NCBI GenBank assembly: GCA_036676705.1
Contig: JAKFCJ010000207.1
Span: 15-64,014 of the forward strand
Direction of reading: 5' to 3'
DNA: 64,000 nucleotides
Origin: Bacteroidota bacterium
GTDB lineage: Bacteria; Bacteroidota; Bacteroidia; UBA8524
The notes beneath the pieces were generated by a model that saw only the letters and a program-made list of their open reading frames with translations, was not told where the DNA came from and made no database searches. Position numbers and translations under genes: made by a program. Shown here piece after piece: positions 1,874 through 39,745 of the stretch; position 1 is the stretch's first letter; every line of letters starts with the position of its first letter.

Positions 1874-3727
1874 ATGAAACAGGCGAAATATAGCTTGGGG
1901 GTTTTGTTGCTTTCCATGGCTGTTATCTTCATTATCCGGGTATTGATCGCGGATAGCGCCAACTCACTCACCTGGGATGTATTTGGCTATTACCTCTACC
2001 TCCCCGCCTATTTTATTTATGATGATCCTACCCTCCAAAATATGGATTGGGTCAATCATATCATTGAAACCTACCATTCAACCGGCACCTTGTACCAGGC
2101 TGTTCAGGTTGAGTCGGGCAACTGGGTGATGCGTTACCCCGGCGGACCGGCACTTTTGAACTTACCGGCTTTTTTGCTGGCAGATAATCTTGCCGAACCC
2201 CTGGGTTATGTGCGCGACGGCTTCTCCAAACCCTACCAGTTTGCCTGGGTATTCGGGAGCATGCTTTATGCTTTTGTTGGCCTCATTTTTTCACGAAAAC
2301 TACTGCTGAAATTCTTTTCCGACCAATGGACAGCCGGGATACTGGTTCTTCTCGTCTTTGCCACCAATTACCTTGAGATAGCCACCTACGCCAATCCCCT
2401 TTCGCATAATTTTCTTTTTGCTTTATATGCCATCGCCCTTTATGCAATAAGCAGCTGGTCGGAGAAGATCCCCTTGGGCAGCGCATTAGGGGTTGGCGTG
2501 CTCATCGGACTGATCACCATGTGCCGGCCGAATGAAGGGCTTTTTATCCTGATACCCCTTCTCTGGAAATGTGCTCCATGGAGTTCGTCAGTACCCTATT
2601 CCACTTTTCTAAGAAACAATATCAAGGCTTTTCTCCTCGCAGCCCTGGGTTTGTTTCTGGGAGGATTGCCACAACTTCTTTACTGGAAATATGCAAGTGG
2701 AGAATGGCTCTTCTACTCTTACCAGGATAACGGCGTTGGCTTCGATCTTTTTGCTCCACATACCCGGGAATTCCTTTTCAGCTACCGTAAAGGCTGGTTT
2801 GTCTATACTCCGGTCATGCTTCTCGCAACCCTTGGTTTTATCCGGCTCTATCGGGTAAAAAGGAAGCTTTTTATTCCCTTTTTTGTCTTCTTCCTGCTCA
2901 ATCTCTATATCGTTTCTGCCTGGTCGGTTTGGTGGTATGGAGGAGGCAGCTATAGTTCCAGATCCATGGTTTCTGCTTATTTGATCATGGCTTTTCCCCT
3001 GGGTTATTTATTGATGTGGTTAAAAGAAAAAGGGAAGCTGATCTGGACCGTTACGCTGGCATTATTGGCTATTATGATCGTATTGAACCTCTTTCAATTC
3101 TGGCAGTTTAAAGCCAGGATCATAGATGGAGAGCGAATGACAGGGGCCTACTACTGGCGCATTTTCGGAAAAACATCCATACCTGAAGGTGCTGAAAAAT
3201 TCATGCTGGTTGAACGCCAGGCGGTGGCGCATGAGCAGATGCCCGGGGATACCAGTCATTTAACCCGGGATATACTTTTTGAAGAATGGCTGGGAACAAC
3301 ATCGAACCAGGAAAATCAGGTGAAACTCGACTGGCCGGATGGAAGCAGGGAAGCTGTTTGCCAGCTGGACGAAAGCCATCCTTATACCCGGGCTTTTGAG
3401 ATGGGGTATAAAGAAATCACCTCCAAAGAATACGCCTGGCTAAGGATAAACGCAGAAATTTACATCCCCGATTCGGTGAATGCAGAGCCGCCCATGCTGG
3501 TTACGCATTTTATGTACAAAGAGCGGCCATACAAATACACCACCACCGAATACCTGGGGCCTGCCCTTAAAAAAGGAGAGTGGCAACGTATCAGTATGGA
3601 CTACATGACCCCGGAGGTGAGGACTAAGGCGGATAAGGTAAAAATATTTCTTTGGTACCGGGGAAAAGACCCCATTTATGCGCGGAGTTTGGAGATTATC
3701 AAATACGAGCCTAAAACTGCTCCATAA
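1874..3727 (+). CDS. Polytopic membrane protein, probably a second GT39/ArnT-like glycosyltransferase. It is divergent from the 299..1810 gene
   Basis: 617 aa with a multi-TM N-terminal half and a soluble C-terminal domain, an architecture typical of PMT/ArnT-like enzymes. Confidence 0.45.
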   Translation: MKQAKYSLGVLLLSMAVIFIIRVLIADSANSLTWDVFGYYLYLPAYFIYDDPTLQNMDWVNHIIETYHSTGTLYQAVQVESGNWVMRYPGGPALLNLPAFLLADNLAEPLGYVRDGFSKPYQFAWVFGSMLYAFVGLIFSRKLLLKFFSDQWTAGILVLLVFATNYLEIATYANPLSHNFLFALYAIALYAISSWSEKIPLGSALGVGVLIGLITMCRPNEGLFILIPLLWKCAPWSSSVPYSTFLRNNIKAFLLAALGLFLGGLPQLLYWKYASGEWLFYSYQDNGVGFDLFAPHTREFLFSYRKGWFVYTPVMLLATLGFIRLYRVKRKLFIPFFVFFLLNLYIVSAWSVWWYGGGSYSSRSMVSAYLIMAFPLGYLLMWLKEKGKLIWTVTLALLAIMIVLNLFQFWQFKARIIDGERMTGAYYWRIFGKTSIPEGAEKFMLVERQAVAHEQMPGDTSHLTRDILFEEWLGTTSNQENQVKLDWPDGSREAVCQLDESHPYTRAFEMGYKEITSKEYAWLRINAEIYIPDSVNAEPPMLVTHFMYKERPYKYTTTEYLGPALKKGEWQRISMDYMTPEVRTKADKVKIFLWYRGKDPIYARSLEIIKYEPKTAP

Positions 3728-7697: not shown

Positions 7698-9077
7698 TCA
7701 CTCAATTTTACGTTTGTTAAACCATTTGTCGTTGAGAGAAACTCCCACAACAAATCGCCAATAATTTTCTTTGATCAGGTTATTTGTTAATGTTCCTCGT
7801 TGAAGGTATTCAACCGAAATGTCGAGACTCGAAAAAATGTAGTCGTATTTAAACTCTTCATTTACGGTTCTTGTCCTCAATGGTAAGCCTATGCCAAAAC
7901 TGATGCCAAGATCGGTAATATCCGTTTCATTAAAGCGCATAAAGGTCTTGCCATAGCGTGCTCCTAAACGGTATTCTGCCTTTGCCAGATACGGGACTTT
8001 TTCATCATACACCTTTAATGAGGGCTTCCATGCAAAGCCAATTCCACCCTGCCAGGCATCCGTCAGGTTCTGGGTCTCAAAGGGGCTTCGGAACTCCGAC
8101 CAGCGTTGCATTCTGTAATCCAGGGCCAGGCGCCATTGATCATCTTTTCCGGAAAGCATATAACCAAACCCGAAAGAACTGGGCAGGGTCGTTTTCCCTT
8201 TTTGAGAGTCATCCAACAAAACGGTATCCAGCACATACTCGCGGTCTCCGGAGAGCACATAGGTTCTGGCAAAAAAGGTCCGGTCGTTATTGAGCTGGGT
8301 GGAAAGAGAATAGGTCAGGCCAAAGTGGTGTTTGATATAAGCGGAGTCTTTGCGAATGGTCTCTTTTCCGATCGCTGAATCATACCCCCGTTTTTCTTTT
8401 ACAACAAGCTGCCGGGTATAATACTGGGCTCCCGCTTCATACATAAAGCCACGAACAAAGTCGGTTGAACTTTCCCGGTAGTTTTGCTGCGCACTGGTAT
8501 TCGGATATTCGATGGACCGGGTAAGGGAGGTTTGTCCATGTAAAAAGGAGACGTTCGCTCCCACGGAAAAGTGGGTGCCGATGGTTTTGCCGGTACCCAA
8601 AAAGTAGCGGGTGATCCCTCCGTTTCCGCTCAACACATCACGGTAATTCCCCTGGGTACTGTCGTGTTCGAAAACGATGTTATACGACAGGCTGCTATAG
8701 GGAGTTGCCCCAAAAGCAAATCCCCAGTTTTTTTTCTTGTTCACCTGAAAACCGAGCGCGAAGTAGTTTAAAGCAGCACCGTTAGTAGCCAGCTTTTGAT
8801 CTCCCTGGGCGATGGTCCCAAAAAAACTGCGTGCCCCGAATTTAAAATTGGTCCGGGTAAGTGCACTATAGGATGCCGGATTGAGCAGGTACAGGTTCAT
8901 CGGACTGCGCATGGCGGTACCGGTTTGTCCCATCGCCTGCTGGTCGGCAAAACCCTGGAAAAAGGTTTGTCCCATTCCAAAACGGGAGTAGGGCGACTGG
9001 GTCAATATCTGTGCATGCAGGGTCGTTCCCAAAACGAACAAAACAGAAGTGAAAACGAGTAGTGAGGCTTTACGCAT
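7698..9077 (-). CDS. Outer-membrane beta-barrel protein, hypothetical
   Basis: Signal peptide MRKASLLVFTSVLFVLGTTLHAQ. The sequence has alternating aromatic/hydrophilic beta-strand character and a C-terminal aromatic residue pattern. Confidence 0.5.
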   Translation of the reverse strand: MRKASLLVFTSVLFVLGTTLHAQILTQSPYSRFGMGQTFFQGFADQQAMGQTGTAMRSPMNLYLLNPASYSALTRTNFKFGARSFFGTIAQGDQKLATNGAALNYFALGFQVNKKKNWGFAFGATPYSSLSYNIVFEHDSTQGNYRDVLSGNGGITRYFLGTGKTIGTHFSVGANVSFLHGQTSLTRSIEYPNTSAQQNYRESSTDFVRGFMYEAGAQYYTRQLVVKEKRGYDSAIGKETIRKDSAYIKHHFGLTYSLSTQLNNDRTFFARTYVLSGDREYVLDTVLLDDSQKGKTTLPSSFGFGYMLSGKDDQWRLALDYRMQRWSEFRSPFETQNLTDAWQGGIGFAWKPSLKVYDEKVPYLAKAEYRLGARYGKTFMRFNETDITDLGISFGIGLPLRTRTVNEEFKYDYIFSSLDISVEYLQRGTLTNNLIKENYWRFVVGVSLNDKWFNKRKIE

Positions 9078-30770: not shown

Positions 30771-31421
30771 TTACTCCATGATGGTGCGAAAGGTCAGGTT
30801 AACCCGGGGACCCATCTTTCGCCTGGTTGGAGGCAAACGGTGTAACCAGTGCGTTTGGGTTGTTCCTTTCATGACAAGCAGGCTGCCATGTTCCAGTATG
30901 AGTGAAACGGTTTGTTTGGTGTTTTTGTGTTTCAAGGAAAATTTCCGTTCGGCTCCAAAACTGAGGGATGCAATTGCTCCGTCTTTTTTCAGGTCTTTCT
31001 CCCCATCGCTGTGCCAGGCCATTCCTTCTTCTCCGGAGTGGTAAAGGTTGAGCAGGCAGGAATTAAAGGTTTCGCCGCTTAGCTTTTCAACAAGCAGTTT
31101 TAATGCGAACAATTCGCGGGTCCAGGGAAGTGCCCGCTTGGTTCGGTTCGAATAGGTATATTCAAACGGTTTTTCGGCATACCAGGCTACCTTCCTTTGG
31201 GTGAGGATGTGTTTGCCGAAGAGGTAGGCTTCGTCATTTTTCCAGGCTATGGTCGTCATTAAAATTTCCAGGTACTGATCGGCCTCCACCTTGCCGAATA
31301 CCTTGCCGTAATAATAGACGCTTCCCTCCAGGGGAAGAAGGTTATGCTTTTTATCCGGCTGCGTGCTGAACAGGTCCATCAGATTATCATTCGGGGTTGA
31401 TCTTTGCTGCTTCCCAACCAA
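30771..31421 (-). CDS. alkB: Alpha-ketoglutarate/Fe(II)-dependent dioxygenase AlkB (DNA and RNA alkylation repair)
   Basis: WHSDGE (HxD) and a downstream His, with a 2OG-FeII oxygenase fold pattern. Confidence 0.8.
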   Translation of the reverse strand: MVGKQQRSTPNDNLMDLFSTQPDKKHNLLPLEGSVYYYGKVFGKVEADQYLEILMTTIAWKNDEAYLFGKHILTQRKVAWYAEKPFEYTYSNRTKRALPWTRELFALKLLVEKLSGETFNSCLLNLYHSGEEGMAWHSDGEKDLKKDGAIASLSFGAERKFSLKHKNTKQTVSLILEHGSLLVMKGTTQTHWLHRLPPTRRKMGPRVNLTFRTIME

Positions 31422-32235
31422 TGATAGCCGCTTTTCGGGTATTGCCCCACATATAGCCCCCGAGTGCCCCCGAGGCCTGAATGACCCGGTGACAGGGAAT
31501 CAAAAAGGCGACCGGATTCCTTCCAATGGCCGTCCCAACTGCCCTTGAAGCCTTTGGACTCCCTATTTTTTCAGCGATCCCGGCATAACTGCTTAAACGT
31601 CCCATTGGGATGCTCAGCAGGGTTTCCCAAACTTTCAGCTGAAATTCGCTTCCCCGGAGATGCAGTTTTAGCTGATCGAGATTACTCCAATCTCCTTTAA
31701 AAACAGATAAGGCCTTTTGATGGATACCGGTGGGCTGATGCTCAAAGGTGGCATTCGGAAATCGGCGTTTCAGTTCCGTGACCGCTAAGTCTGCCTCCTC
31801 CGCAAAGACCATGTGGCAGAGACCTTTTTCCGTTGAGGCCACCAGGATCGGCCCAAAGGGACTTTCCCCAAAACTGAAGTGAATGTGCAGGTTTTTTCCT
31901 CCATGTTTGTACTCGGCCGGCGTCATGCCTTCTATAGAGATAAAGAGATCATGTAAACGGCTGGTTCCCGATAACCCTGTTTCCAATGCAGCGTCAAACA
32001 GGCGCATTTGTCCGTTGTTTTCGAGCAGGGTTTTGGCGTATTGCAGGCTGATATAATGGAGGAATTTTTTCGGACTTGTTCCGGCCCATTCCGTAAACAG
32101 ACGCTGAAAACGGGAAGGACTCAGGTGTACCCGCTCCGCGATCGTTTCCAGACCGGGTTGTTCCCGGAAGTGGTGATGGATAAAGCGGATCGCCTCGCTG
32201 ATGCGGGAATAGTTAAGGGTGTCCTGGTTTTGCAT
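31387..32235 (-). CDS. ada: Ada-like fusion of an AraC-type HTH regulator to O6-methylguanine-DNA methyltransferase
   Basis: C-terminal PCHRVI active site. The N-terminal AraC HTH carries no Cys4 zinc site. It overlaps alkB by 35 bp. Confidence 0.8.
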   Translation of the reverse strand: MQNQDTLNYSRISEAIRFIHHHFREQPGLETIAERVHLSPSRFQRLFTEWAGTSPKKFLHYISLQYAKTLLENNGQMRLFDAALETGLSGTSRLHDLFISIEGMTPAEYKHGGKNLHIHFSFGESPFGPILVASTEKGLCHMVFAEEADLAVTELKRRFPNATFEHQPTGIHQKALSVFKGDWSNLDQLKLHLRGSEFQLKVWETLLSIPMGRLSSYAGIAEKIGSPKASRAVGTAIGRNPVAFLIPCHRVIQASGALGGYMWGNTRKAAIIGWEAAKINPE

Positions 32236-32361: not shown

Positions 32362-33150
32362 ATGAATAAACTTGCAGCCCTGATCGATTTTACTCCCACC
32401 TGTGAGGTGGCCCTTTCTTATTTGAATATGTTGACAATAACGCTCGGGACAGAAGCAGTTTTGGTGAATATTGAAGAAAACCAGGAAAAAAAAGAGCTTA
32501 TCGAAGCCAGGCTGGAGCTGTATGCAAAAAAGATACGTAAAGGTTCACTGGCATGCGCTACCCATGTTGAGATCGGCGATTTTGATTCCATCATAGATAC
32601 CACATTACAGCTACTCAATGCCGAACTCGTCATTACCGGAACCCATGGCGTTAAAGGCTTAAAACAAACCCTTTTCGGCGCCCATATTCTTAAACTGGCC
32701 CAGAATATTTCTATACCCTTGCTGGTGGTCCAGGACGAAAGCAAAGTGAACCCGAACGGGATCGAGAAAATTCTCTTTTCCATGGGTCCGCATGAAAATT
32801 TTGAAGGAACGATCGACTTTATTGCCAGCCTGGCCAAAGACCTGAATAGTACGGTGGTGATCTATACCATCATCAAATCGGCACAGGATCTTTCCGATGA
32901 ACTGGTGCACAATAACAACTACGCAAAAAGGGTATTCGAGGCCGTTGGAGTTCCTTTCGAGCATGTGGTGGAGGAGAGCCAGGATTTTTCTCTTGGATTT
33001 AGTCGCCAAACCATCCATTATATGGAAAAAAACCCTTTCGACATGGTGGTGATGCCTGCCGATGCTTCTGAAATGTACCGGGCTTTCAGTAAGACGGACA
33101 AAGAAAACCTTGTCCTGAATACTCTGGCTGTTCCGGTGCTTTGTGTTTAG
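32362..33150 (+). CDS. Universal stress protein with tandem UspA domains
   Basis: Two USP-like halves, with VITGTHG...IPLLVV in the first. Confidence 0.65.
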   Translation: MNKLAALIDFTPTCEVALSYLNMLTITLGTEAVLVNIEENQEKKELIEARLELYAKKIRKGSLACATHVEIGDFDSIIDTTLQLLNAELVITGTHGVKGLKQTLFGAHILKLAQNISIPLLVVQDESKVNPNGIEKILFSMGPHENFEGTIDFIASLAKDLNSTVVIYTIIKSAQDLSDELVHNNNYAKRVFEAVGVPFEHVVEESQDFSLGFSRQTIHYMEKNPFDMVVMPADASEMYRAFSKTDKENLVLNTLAVPVLCV

Positions 33151-34097: not shown

Positions 34098-34811
34098 ATG
34101 ACTCACCATATCCACCTTAAAAAACTCCTCCTATTCAGTCTTGCTTTCGGGCTATTCACTATAGTAGGAACTATTAGCCACGAATATGGCCATATAGCCG
34201 CAGCCAGAATGTGCGGCTATGAAACGGTACTGCATTATGGAAGCATGCACAGGAAACAATCCGCTTTGGATAAGGAAATTGTTGCTATTTATGATCAGAA
34301 CAAAACGGCAATAGAAAACGGAACGGACTTCAAAGAAAAAACCTACTACGAAGACAGAATTAAGAAACGAAACCGTCATGGCCTGCTAATTAGAATGGGG
34401 GGTCCTTTACAAACGATGTTAACCGGACTGATTGGATTGTCCCTACTCTTTTGGCGGCGAAAAATGATCAGAGAAGCGGGATTAAAATTCCTAGACTGGT
34501 TGGCTGTTTTTTTAGCCTTGTTTTGGCTTAGGGAAGTTTTTAACCCTGTAACAGCAGCAGCGAAAGTCCTCCTATTTCCGGGGCGTCATGGTTTTGGAGG
34601 AGATGAATTTGTAATATCTCGCGTGTTGGGTATACCGGAATGGACTTTTCCAATCCTTTTCGGAGCAATCGGCCTCGCGATTTGCTCCTTCGTCGTTTTT
34701 CGTGTAATACCAATTAACCTGCACCTTACCTTTATATTGAGCGGCCTGGTTGGTGGTATTAGCGGGTTTTATTTATGGATGAATGTACTCGGGCCGCAGT
34801 TATTACCTTGA
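34098..34811 (+). CDS. Membrane protein with an HExxH motif (HEYGH), a putative zinc metalloprotease
   Basis: 237 aa and multi-TM. HEYGH sits near the first TM. Confidence 0.4.
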   Translation: MTHHIHLKKLLLFSLAFGLFTIVGTISHEYGHIAAARMCGYETVLHYGSMHRKQSALDKEIVAIYDQNKTAIENGTDFKEKTYYEDRIKKRNRHGLLIRMGGPLQTMLTGLIGLSLLFWRRKMIREAGLKFLDWLAVFLALFWLREVFNPVTAAAKVLLFPGRHGFGGDEFVISRVLGIPEWTFPILFGAIGLAICSFVVFRVIPINLHLTFILSGLVGGISGFYLWMNVLGPQLLP

Positions 34812-34828: not shown

Positions 34829-35188
34829 ATGGCCACTACAAAACAAAACACCATTCCCCCCGACAAACTCGAGGCCTATAAAAAGCTTATTGCCACTAAA
34901 CCGGAGATCGAATTAAAAGGCGCCTCGATGCCCTATACCTCCGTAAACGGACATATGTTTTCGTTTTTGGATAAGGATGGAAACCTTGGACTCAGGCTGT
35001 CTGCTCCGGAAAGAAATGGCTTTATCGAACAGTACAAAACACGCCTTTGTGAGGCACATGGCACTATCCTGAAGGAATATGTTTTTGTGCCTGAAGATCT
35101 GTTTAAGAAGACGAATGAACTCAAAACCTGGTTTGAAAAGAGCTTCGTTTATGTAGGCGGTTTAAAACCGAAACCGACAAAAAAATAA
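34829..35188 (+). CDS. Hypothetical protein
   Basis: 119 aa ORF with good coding character. No family recognised. Confidence 0.4.
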   Translation: MATTKQNTIPPDKLEAYKKLIATKPEIELKGASMPYTSVNGHMFSFLDKDGNLGLRLSAPERNGFIEQYKTRLCEAHGTILKEYVFVPEDLFKKTNELKTWFEKSFVYVGGLKPKPTKK

Positions 35189-35216: not shown

Positions 35217-35783
35217 CTATTCACAAACCCCACATTCCCCGTCGCCGGCCTTTTTCATCCGGGCATCCAACACATTGCCGCGTTTGTCGAGTTCGATGAC
35301 ACAGCAGTTCACGAACATTTTTTTCAAACGTTCCCGGCCTCTTTGTACCCGTGAACGAAGGGAAGGATAGGCCATATTGTATTTCAGGGCGAGTTCCTTT
35401 TGCCGGATATTTTTGAGTTCACTGTCGATGATGATATCCCGGTATTCTTCGGGGAGTTTTTCGATAAAACTTTCCAGACAGGTTTCCAGTCCTTTGGTGG
35501 CATCCGGGTCGTTTTCATGTGCGATATCCTCAGAATGGGTATCAGTATAACCCAGGTTTTGTTTGCCGGAGCTTTTGCGGTAATAGTCGATAACGGCATT
35601 CCGGGCGATGGTAAAGATCCAGTTCTGGATTTTCTCCTGGTTGCTGATGGAATCCTTTTTCAGGGAAATTTTGATAAAAACCTCCTGCAGGATATCTTCT
35701 GCATCTTCCTTTTTCCCAACCTTGCTCAGGATATAACGCTGTAGAGAATCGTGAAACTGCTGGTGAATATTAGTTATTTCCAT
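35217..35783 (-). CDS. ECF-type RNA polymerase sigma-70 factor with a C-terminal Cys-rich extension
   Basis: Region 2 is ILQEVFIKI...ARNAVIDYYRK and region 4 is ELALKYNMAYPSLRSRVQRGRERL. The tail NCCVIELDKRGNVLDARMKKAGDGECGVCE has four Cys. Confidence 0.8.
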   Translation of the reverse strand: MEITNIHQQFHDSLQRYILSKVGKKEDAEDILQEVFIKISLKKDSISNQEKIQNWIFTIARNAVIDYYRKSSGKQNLGYTDTHSEDIAHENDPDATKGLETCLESFIEKLPEEYRDIIIDSELKNIRQKELALKYNMAYPSLRSRVQRGRERLKKMFVNCCVIELDKRGNVLDARMKKAGDGECGVCE

Positions 35784-36921
35784 ACCTTAAAACGGGACGA
35801 TTGATGGATCGATAATAAAAAAGCAAAGCCAGGGCCAAAACAAAGGTAGCAATTAGAAAGAAGGACTGTAACGCATCTGAACCCGGCAAAAATCCCCCTG
35901 TCAGTGCCCCAAATGCTGCTCCCAGATCACGCCAGGTAACGTTGACAGCCAGTTCATGGAGCCGGCTTTTGGTATCACCGCTTAAAGTTCCGGGAGCCAG
36001 TGCAGAACTGACACTATTCGCGAGGAAGCAGCCCATGATCCCTGCGGAAACAAAACCCGATCCGATCAATAAAAGCGAAAGGATGCCCAGCATCATGGCC
36101 CATATAAATACCCTGTTCAGTCCCATTTTATCTGCCAAATACCCGCCGGCAGGAGAAATAACAAGGATGGATATCCTGCGAAAAGCGAGATAAAAAGCGA
36201 TGAGGGTCAAGGCTTTGGAAGGGGTTAAAAATTCGGCTATAAAGAGTTTTCCTAGTACCACCACAAGCATTCCTTCTATAAAAAATGCGGAAAGAAAAAC
36301 GATAAAATTAAATGAGCCCGGGACAATCGAAAACGCCGGTTTGGCAACTGAAAAACTATGCGAAAGTGGCTTTAAACCACGGGCAAACAAAAGGGAAATG
36401 GCGGAAATAGCCCCCAGCCAGAGGAAAGCAGTTTGCGGCTTTCCATCCATCCATAAAACAGGACCAAAGACCAGCGCAATTAAGGGTCCGACTTCCTGTA
36501 AACCTTTGCTGATACCGAGACTGATCCCTTTTTGCCGGTTTTCGAGCGAATAAGTCAGGCTGCCCAAACGTAGAATGGTATAGGAAAATGCCCAGAGCAA
36601 ACGGGCGATGATCCATAAAATGAGATGGGCCGAGACACCATACAACAAGGTGGAAATTACTGCGGTAGCTGAAGCAAAGAGGGTCATTTTGTGGAAGCCA
36701 AAACGGTTGAAAAGCGGCAAAATCCAGCGGTTAGCCGCGATACGAATAAACCGGTTTATAGACAGCAGAAAACCCACCCAGAGCTCTGGCACATGCAGGG
36801 AAGCAAACTGGATGGGCAATACCGCATAGAGGTAAGTATCGCCCATCAAAGCGAAACTCAGGGTCAAAGAGGAAAACAGGGTGGATCTCAAGCCAGGATA
36901 CTTAAGCACAACAGGCTGCAC
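35770..36921 (-). CDS. MFS transporter
   Basis: 383 aa with 12 TM helices. It overlaps the sigma gene by 14 bp. Confidence 0.7.
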   Translation of the reverse strand: MQPVVLKYPGLRSTLFSSLTLSFALMGDTYLYAVLPIQFASLHVPELWVGFLLSINRFIRIAANRWILPLFNRFGFHKMTLFASATAVISTLLYGVSAHLILWIIARLLWAFSYTILRLGSLTYSLENRQKGISLGISKGLQEVGPLIALVFGPVLWMDGKPQTAFLWLGAISAISLLFARGLKPLSHSFSVAKPAFSIVPGSFNFIVFLSAFFIEGMLVVVLGKLFIAEFLTPSKALTLIAFYLAFRRISILVISPAGGYLADKMGLNRVFIWAMMLGILSLLLIGSGFVSAGIMGCFLANSVSSALAPGTLSGDTKSRLHELAVNVTWRDLGAAFGALTGGFLPGSDALQSFFLIATFVLALALLFYYRSINRPVLRYGNN

Positions 36922-38221
36922 CCTCTTCAGTCACCCCAACTCCGCAAACGCCCGTTTGTGGCAGGTCGAGTTCAACTTTGGCCGCCGATTCAAAATCCCC
37001 GGCCAGGGCGGCGGTGATGGAGCGCACCTGTTCATACCCGGTGGCCATCAAAAAGGTAGGTGCCCTCCCGTAACTTTTCATCCCGACTACATAGAAGTCT
37101 TTTTCCTTTTGACGGAGTTCTCTTTCGCCATGCGGTCGAACCGTGCCACAACTATGGATATTGGGATCGATCAGGTCGGCAATGGCAGGGACACTTTCTA
37201 CAGTGGAGTCGAATTCTACGCGAACTTCACGTAAAAAGGACATATCCGGCCGGGTGCCGGTATTGCTGATGATCTCATCAATTCCTTCCAGGGCTTTAAG
37301 CTCGCCAAATTGATCCCCGATAATGGTAAGACGGCCATTTTCTTCAACAAGTTCCTGAATTTGAAAGGGGGTATAAACATTCAGCTTGTCCTCATTCACG
37401 AGCCGTTCGATTCTTATTCCCAATGTTCCTCTTGCAGGCAGGGCATCGTCAGCCTGTCCGCCATAGGTTTCCTGAACCCGTTTTTTTCTCAATACCCAAT
37501 GGATGCGGGTTTGCGGGAAATCAGCCAAAAGTTTTTCGAGTTCGAGTAGGCTGTTAATAGCGGAGTGCCCGCCACCCACCACCAGCACATCCTTGTTGGC
37601 GTAACGTTGTTGATGGATACCGGAGACATCGGGAATACCATAAAAAATACGGTCACTATTTTCTATTTCTCCAAAAGCAAACATACCTCCGGAGCCAATG
37701 GGATTGCTGTTTTGCCAGGTTCCTGATGCATCGATCACCGCCCGTGCTTCGAAGAATTTATTTTCACCATTTTGATCAACTTGCAACACAAAAGGCTGTT
37801 TTTCTCTATTTGCCGACTTCATCTTATCCATCCCTTTTCTTCCAACAGCAAGCACTTTGCTGGAAAAATAAATGGGAGAATAGGTAGCCAGCTGCTCGGA
37901 AAGTGGCTGGAGATAAGAGTCGATCATCTCTTGTCCGCTTGGCAGGGCCTCTTCATCGGGTTTGGTCCACGCAGTTGATTCCAGGATCACCTCGGCGGCT
38001 TTGTCGATATTATAACGCCAGGGAGAAAAGACCCGTACATGGCTCCAGGTTTTCATATTGGCAGCTACCCGGGATCCGGATTCAAAAAGTAAAAAAGGAA
38101 TGCCGCGCAGGGTTAAATGGGCTGCTGCAGCAAGGCCAACGGGGCCGCCACCAATAATGGCAACGGGTAATGAGGAATTTTCCATAAAATGCGATCTTGA
38201 ATGCATGTGTTGTTTATGCAT
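36902..38221 (-). CDS. FAD/NAD(P)-binding oxidoreductase (flavin monooxygenase / pyridine nucleotide-disulfide-like)
   Basis: Two Rossmann motifs, AIIGGGPVGLAAAAHL and LVVGGGHSAINSL. There are C-terminal Cys pairs. It overlaps the MFS gene by 20 bp. Confidence 0.6.
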   Translation of the reverse strand: MHKQHMHSRSHFMENSSLPVAIIGGGPVGLAAAAHLTLRGIPFLLFESGSRVAANMKTWSHVRVFSPWRYNIDKAAEVILESTAWTKPDEEALPSGQEMIDSYLQPLSEQLATYSPIYFSSKVLAVGRKGMDKMKSANREKQPFVLQVDQNGENKFFEARAVIDASGTWQNSNPIGSGGMFAFGEIENSDRIFYGIPDVSGIHQQRYANKDVLVVGGGHSAINSLLELEKLLADFPQTRIHWVLRKKRVQETYGGQADDALPARGTLGIRIERLVNEDKLNVYTPFQIQELVEENGRLTIIGDQFGELKALEGIDEIISNTGTRPDMSFLREVRVEFDSTVESVPAIADLIDPNIHSCGTVRPHGERELRQKEKDFYVVGMKSYGRAPTFLMATGYEQVRSITAALAGDFESAAKVELDLPQTGVCGVGVTEEGAACCA

Positions 38222-38257
38222 GGAAAGACGACGACATGGAAAAATGATGCAATTGAT

Positions 38258-38683
38258 TTAAAAACGTTTCTGCTCGAGTTTTTCGATCAGGCGGATGAGG
38301 TCGCCCGGAAACGGAACCTTTATGTTTTCGTTAAAATCAAACATCACCATCACATCCCGGGCTTCAGCAGCAACTTCACCCTGCTCATTGAGAATTTGAT
38401 GACAGATGCTGAAACTCGTGTTTTTAATGTAATCTACTCTGGATTGAATGGTTATCTGGCCGGGGTAAAATAGGGGCTTTTTAAAATCGCAGTGACAGGA
38501 TGCCAGCATAGGTCCGATATTCGTTTCCCTGTGTGACCGGGTCAGTCCGATCTGGTCCCAATAATTCACCCGGGCAGCCTGGATGTATTTAAAGAAGGAG
38601 ACATTATTGACATGCCCGAAATAGTCGAGTTCGCTCCAGTCGATGCGCAGCGGAAGTTTTACAGGAAAAAATGTATCGGCCAT
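38258..38683 (-). CDS. Hotdog-fold acyl-CoA thioesterase (4HBT/YbgC-like)
   Basis: 141 aa with FGHVNNVSFFKYIQAAR. Confidence 0.7.
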   Translation of the reverse strand: MADTFFPVKLPLRIDWSELDYFGHVNNVSFFKYIQAARVNYWDQIGLTRSHRETNIGPMLASCHCDFKKPLFYPGQITIQSRVDYIKNTSFSICHQILNEQGEVAAEARDVMVMFDFNENIKVPFPGDLIRLIEKLEQKRF

Positions 38684-38794: not shown

Positions 38795-39745
38795 TTAAGG
38801 CAGACCGTTTATGACGGCATCCAGATTTGCTGAGGTTGTTGCAGTCATTGAAACCGGATAGGTAATGCCTACTGCCGGCGTGATGTCGGCTATTCCATAA
38901 TATAATTGTCCTTCTACTACCGAGATCACCACCAAATTCATCGGCACATCAGCCAGGTGGGTTTCAGAGATCAGGTTACCGGTGATGCTACCCCAGCCCT
39001 GGGTTCCTACAGGCCAAACGGTATTTTGGTTTTTAAAAACAGCAAAAGCGGTAGTATTGGTGCCATCAAGTCCGGCGACTCCGGTTAGGTTAAAGGCACA
39101 ATTGAAATAGTTTACTTGCATAAAGGCGTCAATATTGCCCCAACGCATGGAGTCGAGGGTAATGTCGTATGTGTTGTCAGCGCTGTTGAAAGAGAAAGCT
39201 CCTCCAATTGCCCCGCCACCGCCCGCAGCGGAATCTTGCCGTCTCCAGTTTACATCTTTAGGGTCTTCCGCATTGTCACCCCAGAAAAGTTCCATGTTTT
39301 GGTCCTCAGCCTGGGCGGGAATAACGACATCAAGCATAACTCCGTTATCCAGGTGGAGTTCGGAACCATCTTTTGAGGCGGAGAGAAAAAATTCACCTCC
39401 CGAATTCAACATCAGGTTACCACTAACCGGAAAAATACCGGAGAAGATGATATCACTGGTGCTAAAGACCTCTTTAAAGCGAAGGGTAACTGTTCCGCTT
39501 ACGGCTTGTCCGTTTTGATCAACAAAGGCATTGGCAGGTATCGTGAGCTTGGAGCCCTTGGTTGTGGTGAAGGTGCCTCCTGTTTCGGCTGTGACCAAAA
39601 AGGTTGTGGCCTTGGGTGCCCGTGTATCGAAAAAAGATTGAACGGAGGTAAAGGTTTCCGGGCTGTTCGGCTGATCCGGGTCTTCCTGGCAGGAACTGAT
39701 CGCCAAAACGACAAACAGGGCGGCAATGAATCGTGTAGTTTTCAT
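38795..39745 (-). CDS. Lipoprotein, hypothetical
   Basis: MKTTRFIAALFVVLAISSC lipobox. Confidence 0.5.
   Translation of the reverse strand: MKTTRFIAALFVVLAISSCQEDPDQPNSPETFTSVQSFFDTRAPKATTFLVTAETGGTFTTTKGSKLTIPANAFVDQNGQAVSGTVTLRFKEVFSTSDIIFSGIFPVSGNLMLNSGGEFFLSASKDGSELHLDNGVMLDVVIPAQAEDQNMELFWGDNAEDPKDVNWRRQDSAAGGGGAIGGAFSFNSADNTYDITLDSMRWGNIDAFMQVNYFNCAFNLTGVAGLDGTNTTAFAVFKNQNTVWPVGTQGWGSITGNLISETHLADVPMNLVVISVVEGQLYYGIADITPAVGITYPVSMTATTSANLDAVINGLP

Follow-up and report, generated by a model that had tools for sequence, protein, structure and literature searches.

The window analysed here, a stretch of 64,000 nucleotides from a Bacteroidota bacterium (GTDB lineage UBA8524; assembly GCA_036676705.1, contig JAKFCJ010000207.1), carries on its minus strand, at positions 35,217 to 38,221, three overlapping genes encoding a flavoprotein, a major facilitator superfamily (MFS) transporter and a sigma factor of the extracytoplasmic function (ECF) type. 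On balance we favour the view that they act as a self-contained operon under positive autoregulation that detoxifies thiophilic metalloids, namely trivalent arsenic and antimony species including organoarsenicals, with a cysteine cluster of the sigma factor as the sensor. The gene order, a conserved cysteine-rich tail of the sigma factor, a conserved promoter and the ars-type regulon and context have been established computationally. Recognition of this promoter by the sigma factor, a metalloid as ligand, its direct binding by the cysteines and the chemistry of the enzyme are what we infer. The first-pass annotation had suggested a redox or xenobiotic stress module. A self-contained module is also our favoured view, but the context favours detoxification of arsenic/antimony-type metalloids over general redox stress. 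The features of the operon are as follows (positions in the window):

36902..38221, minus strand: flavoprotein open reading frame (ORF) as first called, 439 amino acids (aa), from the ORF list
36902..38185, minus strand: flavoprotein, revised, 427 aa, FAD/NAD(P)-dependent, ars-island family, probably ArsV; Pyr_redox_3, E 3.9e-16
about 36905-36961, minus strand: cysteine-rich C-terminal tail of the flavoprotein
35770..36921, minus strand: MFS transporter, 383 aa, GTG start; PF07690
35217..35783, minus strand: SigZ-type ECF sigma factor, 188 aa; NF007215, TIGR02937
35220..35306, minus strand: the sigma factor's cysteine-rich C-terminal extension, residues 160-188, from the translation
35478..35480, minus strand: codon of C102 of the sigma factor, at the start of region 4 (first helix), from conservation
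38223..38253, minus strand: predicted SigZ-type (ECF) promoter; motif in 26/26 loci, position weight matrix (PWM) score 29.4

The first-pass annotation had proposed to look for an ECF promoter motif upstream of 38221, and one was found at 38253-38223. It consists of the -35 element TGCATC (38251-38246), a T-rich spacer and the -10 element CGTCT (38230-38226), which would place the transcription start near 38220. The motif GC(A/G)TC-N15/16-CGTC is located 33-100 nt upstream of the flavoprotein start codon in all of 26 sigma-linked loci from Bacteroidota, a Spirochaetia metagenome-assembled genome (MAG), Binatia and Ornithinibacillus. The aligned upstream regions of these loci read nCTGC(A/G)TC(T/A)TTTT, 6-7 nt, ccCGTCTTTA and have no other similarity in common. 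The resulting consensus, TGC(A/G)TC-N15/16-CGTC, is bipartite and ECF-type, and the phyla with the motif include Bacillota, Chloroflexota, Cyanobacteria and Binatia. In a PWM search with a threshold of 12, where shuffled sequence yields 0-7 matches, the runner-up to the operon promoter in the window scored 17.3 with atypical spacing, and no second site was accepted. TGCATC-N15/16-CGTC occurs once in the 64 kb compared to 0.17 occurrences expected by chance. Among 28 metagenome loci with a flavoprotein gene and no sigma gene on the same strand, 26 are without the motif (best scores <=3.9). The motif tracks the sigma factor rather than the enzyme. It is probably the cognate promoter of the sigma factor, and the operon would be positively autoregulated.

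The flavoprotein and MFS genes overlap by 20 bp (36902-36921), the MFS and sigma genes by 14 bp (35770-35783), as originally described. The gene identities given at that time agree with Pfam and NCBIfam (Pyr_redox_3 and Pyr_redox_2; MFS_1; Sigma70_r2 and Sigma70_r4_2). A flavoprotein start at 38221 had to be abandoned, since the -10 element lies only 5 nt upstream of this position and the putative transcription start at about 38220; the start codon is most likely ATG 38185. In agreement with this, the NCBI protein (P0121) comprises 427 aa, and homologues begin about 5-8 residues ahead of LPVAIIGGGP. The operon is preceded by a thioesterase gene (38258..38683), 36 nt from 38221 and upstream of the promoter. 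This gene and a lipoprotein gene (38795..39745) were considered as module members and rejected, being syntenic only in locus L001 and located upstream of the promoter. L001, a MAG of UBA8524, encodes a 95% identical sigma factor in identical gene order. The window represents the minimal form of the module, containing none of the extra regulon genes of other loci.

The sigma factor consists of regions 2 and 4 only and passes the family cut-off for ECF (group IV) sigma-70 factors (TIGR02937, 64.3 bits, cut-off 42.9; PF04542, 43.6 bits, cut-off 24; PF08281, 28.9 bits, cut-off 25.7). The best NCBIfam matches are two SigZ models, NF007215 (E 1.6e-54) and TIGR02959 (E 2.2e-48). Because these score just under their equivalog cut-offs (184.6 vs 212 and 164.3 vs 168.65, respectively), we refer to the protein as SigZ-like; its close homologues P0023 and P0100 bear the NCBI name SigZ. 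SigZ has been placed in subgroup 9 of ECF238, a merger of ECF24 and ECF44 whose members have a cysteine-rich extension of ~20 aa, sometimes a linker cysteine, and no anti-sigma factor (Casas-Pastor et al. 2021, PMC7826278). Two of these traits are present here, namely the short cysteine-rich C-terminal extension, with the conserved motif CC-x-I-E-x-D-x-x-G-N…C-x-x-C, and the lack of a cognate anti-sigma gene in the neighbourhood. Placed via the published SigZ assignment, the sigma factor is, judging by its sequence, of the known SigZ/ECF238 kind. The original description of a C-terminally extended ECF group with cysteine-rich tail and without anti-sigma factor thus agrees with the SigZ matches and with the ECF238 description.

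The protein ends with NCCVIELDKRGNVLDARMKKAGDGECGVCE. In the AlphaFold2 model (mean predicted local distance difference test score 71) it shows an ordinary sigma2/sigma4 fold matching SigH, SigL, SigW and SigE, with the last helix ending at residue 160 and a hairpin following. The tail is made up of the vicinal pair C160-C161, a predicted beta-hairpin (161-165, 171-176) and C184-x-x-C187; PDB sequence and fold searches gave no solved structure covering it. The SigZ alignments reach the model ends (model positions 1-176 of 181), and therefore the tail belongs to the family. Its motif is present in 120/120 closest homologues, where C102, C160, C161, D166 and G169 are invariant. Across a wider set of 80 relatives with identities as low as 35%, C161 is retained in 79, C160 in 78, G169 in 76, D166 in 75, C102 in 74 and the distal cysteine (C184 column) in 73 proteins. 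Four of the six C102 exceptions have serine at this position; these are Chloroflexi-type sigma factors with additional tail cysteines. The tail is thus not missing from close relatives, as the refuting condition of the first-pass annotation would have it; it is retained in the closest homologues (120/120) as in the more distant ones (78-79/80). The four-cysteine tail of the first-pass annotation is confirmed and extended by C102 as a fifth conserved cysteine at the start of region 4. Each of the five cysteines of the protein stands at a conserved position.

The statement that there is no anti-sigma gene nearby held as well. We detected no FecR or zf-HC2 ORF, no anti-sigma domain among the window neighbours by Pfam and NCBIfam, and in 80 genome loci neither a conserved anti-sigma-like neighbour nor a conserved unexplained neighbour family of the sigma gene. 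Two ORFs were tried as anti-sigma partners, 34829..35188 (weak TfoX_N match, 23.4 bits vs 30.1) and 34098..34811 (weak M50B match). Both were rejected because they lie on the opposite strand and are absent beside the sigma gene in L001 and in all other loci. The second of them (34098-34811, plus strand), convergent with the operon, encodes a multi-pass membrane protein of 237 aa with the metalloprotease-like motif HEYGH and a weak Peptidase_M50B-like match. None of the related loci has it conserved next to the sigma gene, and it was therefore judged unrelated.

Some loci contain a second, more distant SigZ-like paralogue (~30-38% identity), whose tail reads …DGYGNV…C and which lies at most 1-3 kb away from the first, in convergent or divergent orientation: L010, L011, L015, L016, L019, L030, L041 (8922-9455, minus strand), L055 and L075. 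It often has its own site of the promoter motif.

Regulon and neighbourhood were counted over the 80 genome loci. The motif precedes the flavoprotein gene in 24 loci, the sigma gene itself in 16, and in about 45 a gene directly after the sigma gene that encodes a peptide of 57-72 aa with four vicinal CC pairs (CC-pair peptide) and without Pfam or NCBIfam family. Also found behind the motif were arsM, encoding arsenite methyltransferase (338.9 and 360.4 bits, cut-off 263), arsI/cadI (146.4 bits, cut-off 116), DUF2703 genes (140.7 bits, cut-off 23.6), one ArsR/SmtB regulator gene and one MerT-like gene. At distances of up to 4 kb from the sigma gene we detected the flavoprotein in 28 loci, MFS in 26, ACR3 in 22 (428.6 bits, cut-off 282.8), low-molecular-weight phosphatase/ArsC-like proteins in 22, ArsR/SmtB in 19, MerTP in 15 (289.5 bits, cut-off 180), DUF6428 in 15, ArsN-like proteins in 12, DUF2703 in 10 and ArsM in 8 (359 bits, cut-off 263). 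Acetobacterium has the arrangement arsA-arsD-sigma-[promoter]-arsM.

The CC-pair peptide family is unannotated. An example is found in L016 at 8588-8850 on the plus strand (…SSCCAPKNNASVCCTPSEKAEDNDGACCAQPEDGSSCCDK), with equivalents in about 45 of L002-L045; the Flavobacterium version has a signal peptide. Other small peptides of 34-37 aa contain CxC repeats (e.g. MSEENTVKCECQCENCSCGECRCECKCENSSCCG) and are encoded in MAGs of Vicingaceae, Dadabacteria and Thermodesulfobacteriota (L060 about 2917-3100, L062 about 285-450, L077 about 7736-7900).

The flavoprotein, matched by Pyr_redox_3 and also by Pyr_redox_2, belongs to a family of at least 8000 relatives. Homologues with 43-57% identity sit in ars islands of many phyla. 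On an Ensifer adhaerens plasmid the order is arsR-oxred-arsK beside aioAB, oxred being the flavoprotein gene, the only one of this cluster (48% full-length identity to the flavoprotein of the window). A Nitrobacter hamburgensis plasmid carries aioAB, arsH, arsC and an aquaporin gene, then arsR-oxred-MFS, and Rhodococcus erythropolis pREL1 carries arsR-oxred-MFS-ArsO-like. The order is marR-oxred-arsN1-trxB-arsR-arsR-arsB-arsC on a Paenibacillus urinalis plasmid, marR…oxred-small ORF-MFS-arsN1 on a Cytobacillus plasmid and arsR-oxred-small ORF-ArsO-like-arsN1 on a Bacillus cereus plasmid. In metagenome loci the flavoprotein gene has as neighbours ArsR (30), MFS (25), ArsN1 (14), cysteine-bearing MarR (10), ArsB (7), ArsM (4) and Acr3 (3), of which ArsN1b, ArsB, Acr3 and ArsR pass curated cut-offs. 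The ArsR, MarR and PadR proteins encoded beside the flavoprotein gene elsewhere carry CC pairs. Location in an ars operon or island, a trait of the ArsV family, thus applies to the family of this flavoprotein; the copy in the window is without ars neighbour. The flavoprotein is probably a member of that family. ArsV reportedly catalyses the oxidation of antimonite, methylarsenite and trivalent roxarsone, and ArsW is the efflux protein with which it cooperates (Zhang et al. 2022; Chen et al. 2021, as cited). A report on Paenibacillus describes marR_ars directly upstream of arsV (bioRxiv 10.1101/2021.08.12.456183).

The four cysteines of the flavoprotein, C346 (HSCG within N-x-H-S-C-G), C414 (ETGVC) and C425-C426, are all conserved in the family, and most homologues have a longer tail with further CC pairs. 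Among solved structures the sequence relatives are remote only. The AlphaFold2 model (predicted TM-score 0.75) has its closest folds in Bdr/YpdA and thioredoxin reductase (TrxR)-like ferredoxin reductases (FNR). Bdr/YpdA is the best structural neighbour (Foldseek E 4e-20), but with a TM-score of only 0.38-0.49 and 19% identity. Several identities were rejected: Bdr/YpdA (TIGR04018, 47.2 bits vs cut-off 339.9), ArsO (NF040505, 45.3 bits over the N-terminal half only, cut-off 425), TrxR, whose NCBIfam cut-off is missed by a wide margin, and MerA, which has a redox-active CxxxxC pair in the FAD domain besides a C-terminal CC pair, whereas the flavoprotein has only the latter and gives no NCBIfam MerA match. 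Proper ArsO-like proteins (275.7 bits) have genes of their own in these islands.

On the Staphylococcus arlettae plasmid pSA-01 (L161, 57812-61700), which confers multiresistance and carries erm(B), a flavoprotein homologue is located directly upstream of merR1-merA. This hints that the flavoprotein family may also serve in mercury or general soft-metal resistance. A conserved protein of 67-69 aa (MxINHAGTLKKxYFxSY…) with no family match and at most one cysteine is encoded after the flavoprotein gene on plasmids of Bacillota (L162 7370-7573, L163 7365-7574, L161 7341-7544 and 5680-5886); in S. arlettae its gene also precedes that of the flavoprotein.

The MFS transporter (PF07690, 35.5 bits, cut-off 33.4) is presumed to export the detoxified or bound metalloid species. 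Among the 80 genome loci, 26 have its gene after that of the flavoprotein, and the protein is homologous to the MFS transporter of the MarR-oxred-MFS-ArsN1 cluster of Cytobacillus (33% over 144 aa, E 6e-20).

If the operon serves metalloid detoxification, it may work as follows. A single transcript from the promoter at 38253-38223 would encode the flavoprotein, the MFS exporter and the sigma factor, and the latter would recognise the promoter of its own operon. C160-C161, C102 and the distal C184/C187 together could form the ligand site, with C102 as the proposed third thiolate. This would resemble MarR_ars, whose As(III)/Sb(III) site consists of Cys36, Cys37 and Cys157, i.e. a vicinal pair plus one, and ArsR with its cysteine triads (bioRxiv 10.1101/2021.08.12.456183). 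Binding of the metalloid might switch the sigma factor to the active conformation, as metals do with CorE2; CorE and CorE2, members of ECF238, are metal-activated via a cysteine-rich extension (PMC7826278, PMC8999054), and direct sensing by the sigma factor is modelled on CorE2 by analogy. The active sigma factor would then raise the expression of enzyme, exporter and sigma factor. The flavoprotein is expected to oxidise or otherwise process trivalent species caught by its own cysteine tail, and the MFS transporter to export the product. In this lineage the sigma factor would occupy the place that is held elsewhere by ArsR or MarR_ars beside the same flavoprotein.

A bolder proposal concerns the whole family and is put forward tentatively, as a possibility in which we place less confidence. 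SigZ-family sigma factors might be one-component arsenic/antimony sensors, in which As(III), Sb(III) or methylarsenite, bound by the three thiolates of C160-C161 and C102, connects the start and end of region 4 and so activates the sigma factor. The latter would then drive the TGC(A/G)TC-N15/16-CGTC regulon of ArsV-like oxidases, exporters, ArsM, ArsI, DUF2703 proteins and CC-pair peptides, the latter as arsenic buffers or chaperones.

Several observations weigh against a metalloid-sensing operon. A tblastn search with 11 reference proteins found no other ars genes in the 64-kb window, and no ORF with CC pairs, i.e. no CC-pair peptide gene, was found there either. Only generic names appear in the databases for the 90% cluster and the 120 top homologues of the flavoprotein from Ensifer. 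The MFS transporter was rejected as ArsK (NF033733) or ArsJ, with no match at E 0.01 or better, and BLASTP gave no match between it and the Ensifer ArsK. As ArsR is encoded beside the sigma gene in 19 loci, the sigma factor need not be the sole sensor. MerTP in 15 loci and metallothionein-like CxC peptides behind the motif in 3 loci allow a broader soft-metal specificity, and the tail could hold a structural zinc instead.

The best of the competing explanations is a CorE2-type sensor for a broader range of soft metals, with Cd(II), Zn(II), Hg(II) or Cu as ligands of its cysteine cluster and an operon that, together with cysteine-rich peptides, buffers and exports metal cations instead of metalloids. 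We consider it unlikely. It could draw on ECF238 itself, which includes CorE (Cu) and CorE2 (Cd/Zn), both activated through the cysteine-rich extension, and on the CxC peptides behind the same promoter (L060, L062, L077), the high-scoring MerTP genes near the sigma gene and the flavoprotein homologue adjoining merR-merA in S. arlettae. However, genes for P-type ATPases, cation diffusion facilitators and MerA were not found behind the promoter, the specific markers of regulon and neighbourhood are arsM, arsI, acr3, arsA/arsD, arsN1 and arsK, and the CxC linker motif that defines CorE-like sigma factors is absent here.

Quite improbable, in our view, is a sensor of thiol or redox stress, in which oxidative or electrophile stress would lead to disulfide formation or alkylation of the cysteines, with the flavoprotein as a Bdr/YpdA-type disulfide reductase and the MFS transporter as a xenobiotic exporter. 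The structural similarity of the flavoprotein to Bdr and TrxR-like enzymes would fit such a function, and ECF systems with cysteine-based redox switches have been described (PMC7826278). Against this, the YpdA model is missed by far, typical oxidative-stress genes are absent among regulon members and neighbours, where ars genes dominate, and the same flavoprotein is elsewhere controlled by ArsR or MarR_ars-like regulators.

The most doubtful explanation, a structural zinc knuckle in a sigma factor that is no sensor and whose activity is set by its amount, via other regulators or read-through from the thioesterase gene, is suggested by the appearance of CC…CxxC around a beta-hairpin, by the ArsR genes near the sigma gene and by a distance of only 36-72 nt between operon and upstream gene, but the window and most Cytophagales loci are without another regulator in the module, positive autoregulation lacking control of activity would be unstable, and with CC and C102 fixed and the distal cysteines varying in number and spacing, a ligand site fits better than a fixed Zn(Cys)4.

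The sigma type, its cysteine-rich tail and ars modules of flavoprotein plus permease have already been described. Like SigZ of Bacillus subtilis and ECF238 in general, the sigma factor of the window is a two-domain ECF factor with a short cysteine-rich extension, a cysteine near the linker and no anti-sigma gene. It differs in scoring just under the SigZ cut-offs, and here promoter motif, regulon and ars context are defined by comparison. To our knowledge, no signal or regulon is known for SigZ. In Myxococcus xanthus, CorE and CorE2 (former ECF44) are likewise governed via their own cysteine-rich extension without anti-sigma factor, the thiophilic ion binding directly to the extension (PMC7826278, PMC8999054). 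In contrast to them, the sigma factor of the window has the single C102 (GLExCL) and a vicinal CC but no CxC, which places it outside the CorE-like proteins as delimited in PMC8999054, and its predicted target genes are arsenic-type instead of copper/cadmium genes. With the ArsV plus ArsW and arsR-arsV-arsK modules the operon has in common a flavin enzyme and an efflux permease in one operon, and in Paenibacillus marR lies directly upstream of the flavoprotein homologue as reported for arsV. Here, however, the regulator is an ECF sigma activator and not an ArsR or MarR_ars repressor, and the MFS transporter is of a lineage other than ArsK. ArsR and MarR_ars themselves have few sensing cysteines including a vicinal pair, as proposed for the sigma factor, but their fold is unrelated and the logic opposite, i.e. 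derepression there and sigma activation with positive feedback here.

Repressors (ArsR, MarR_ars, NemR) and two-component systems make up the arsenic sensors known to us; if a sigma factor read a metalloid by its own cysteines, the regulatory logic would differ, consisting in activation with positive feedback. A full-text search of the literature available to us on ECF sigma factors or SigZ and arsenic gave no paper linking SigZ-type sigma factors to ars islands, and none with the promoter consensus, a CC-pair peptide regulon or a sigma factor replacing ArsR or MarR. ECF238 is a large group of which only CorE and CorE2 are understood, with very limited functional studies on SigZ, and the main text of the classification mentions neither arsenic nor an oxidoreductase or MFS (PMC7826278). 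Should the proposal for the SigZ family be true, it would provide the first known case of arsenic sensing by a sigma factor and give B. subtilis SigZ a function. The comparison provides a promoter consensus, a predicted regulon, residues for mutation and candidate inducers, and opens the function of SigZ-family factors to direct testing. It also places a very widespread flavoprotein in metalloid resistance and points to an uncharacterised family of CC-pair peptides.

Elsewhere in the window (1-64000), no tRNA, tmRNA or Rfam family at gathering score was detected. Two genes located 3-4 kb downstream of the operon, for which no link to it was found, were tentatively identified by reading the translations only. 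One (31387-32235, minus strand) encodes an Ada-like fusion of an AraC-type regulator and a methylated-DNA-protein-cysteine methyltransferase, the other (32362-33150, plus strand) a tandem universal-stress-protein-like protein.

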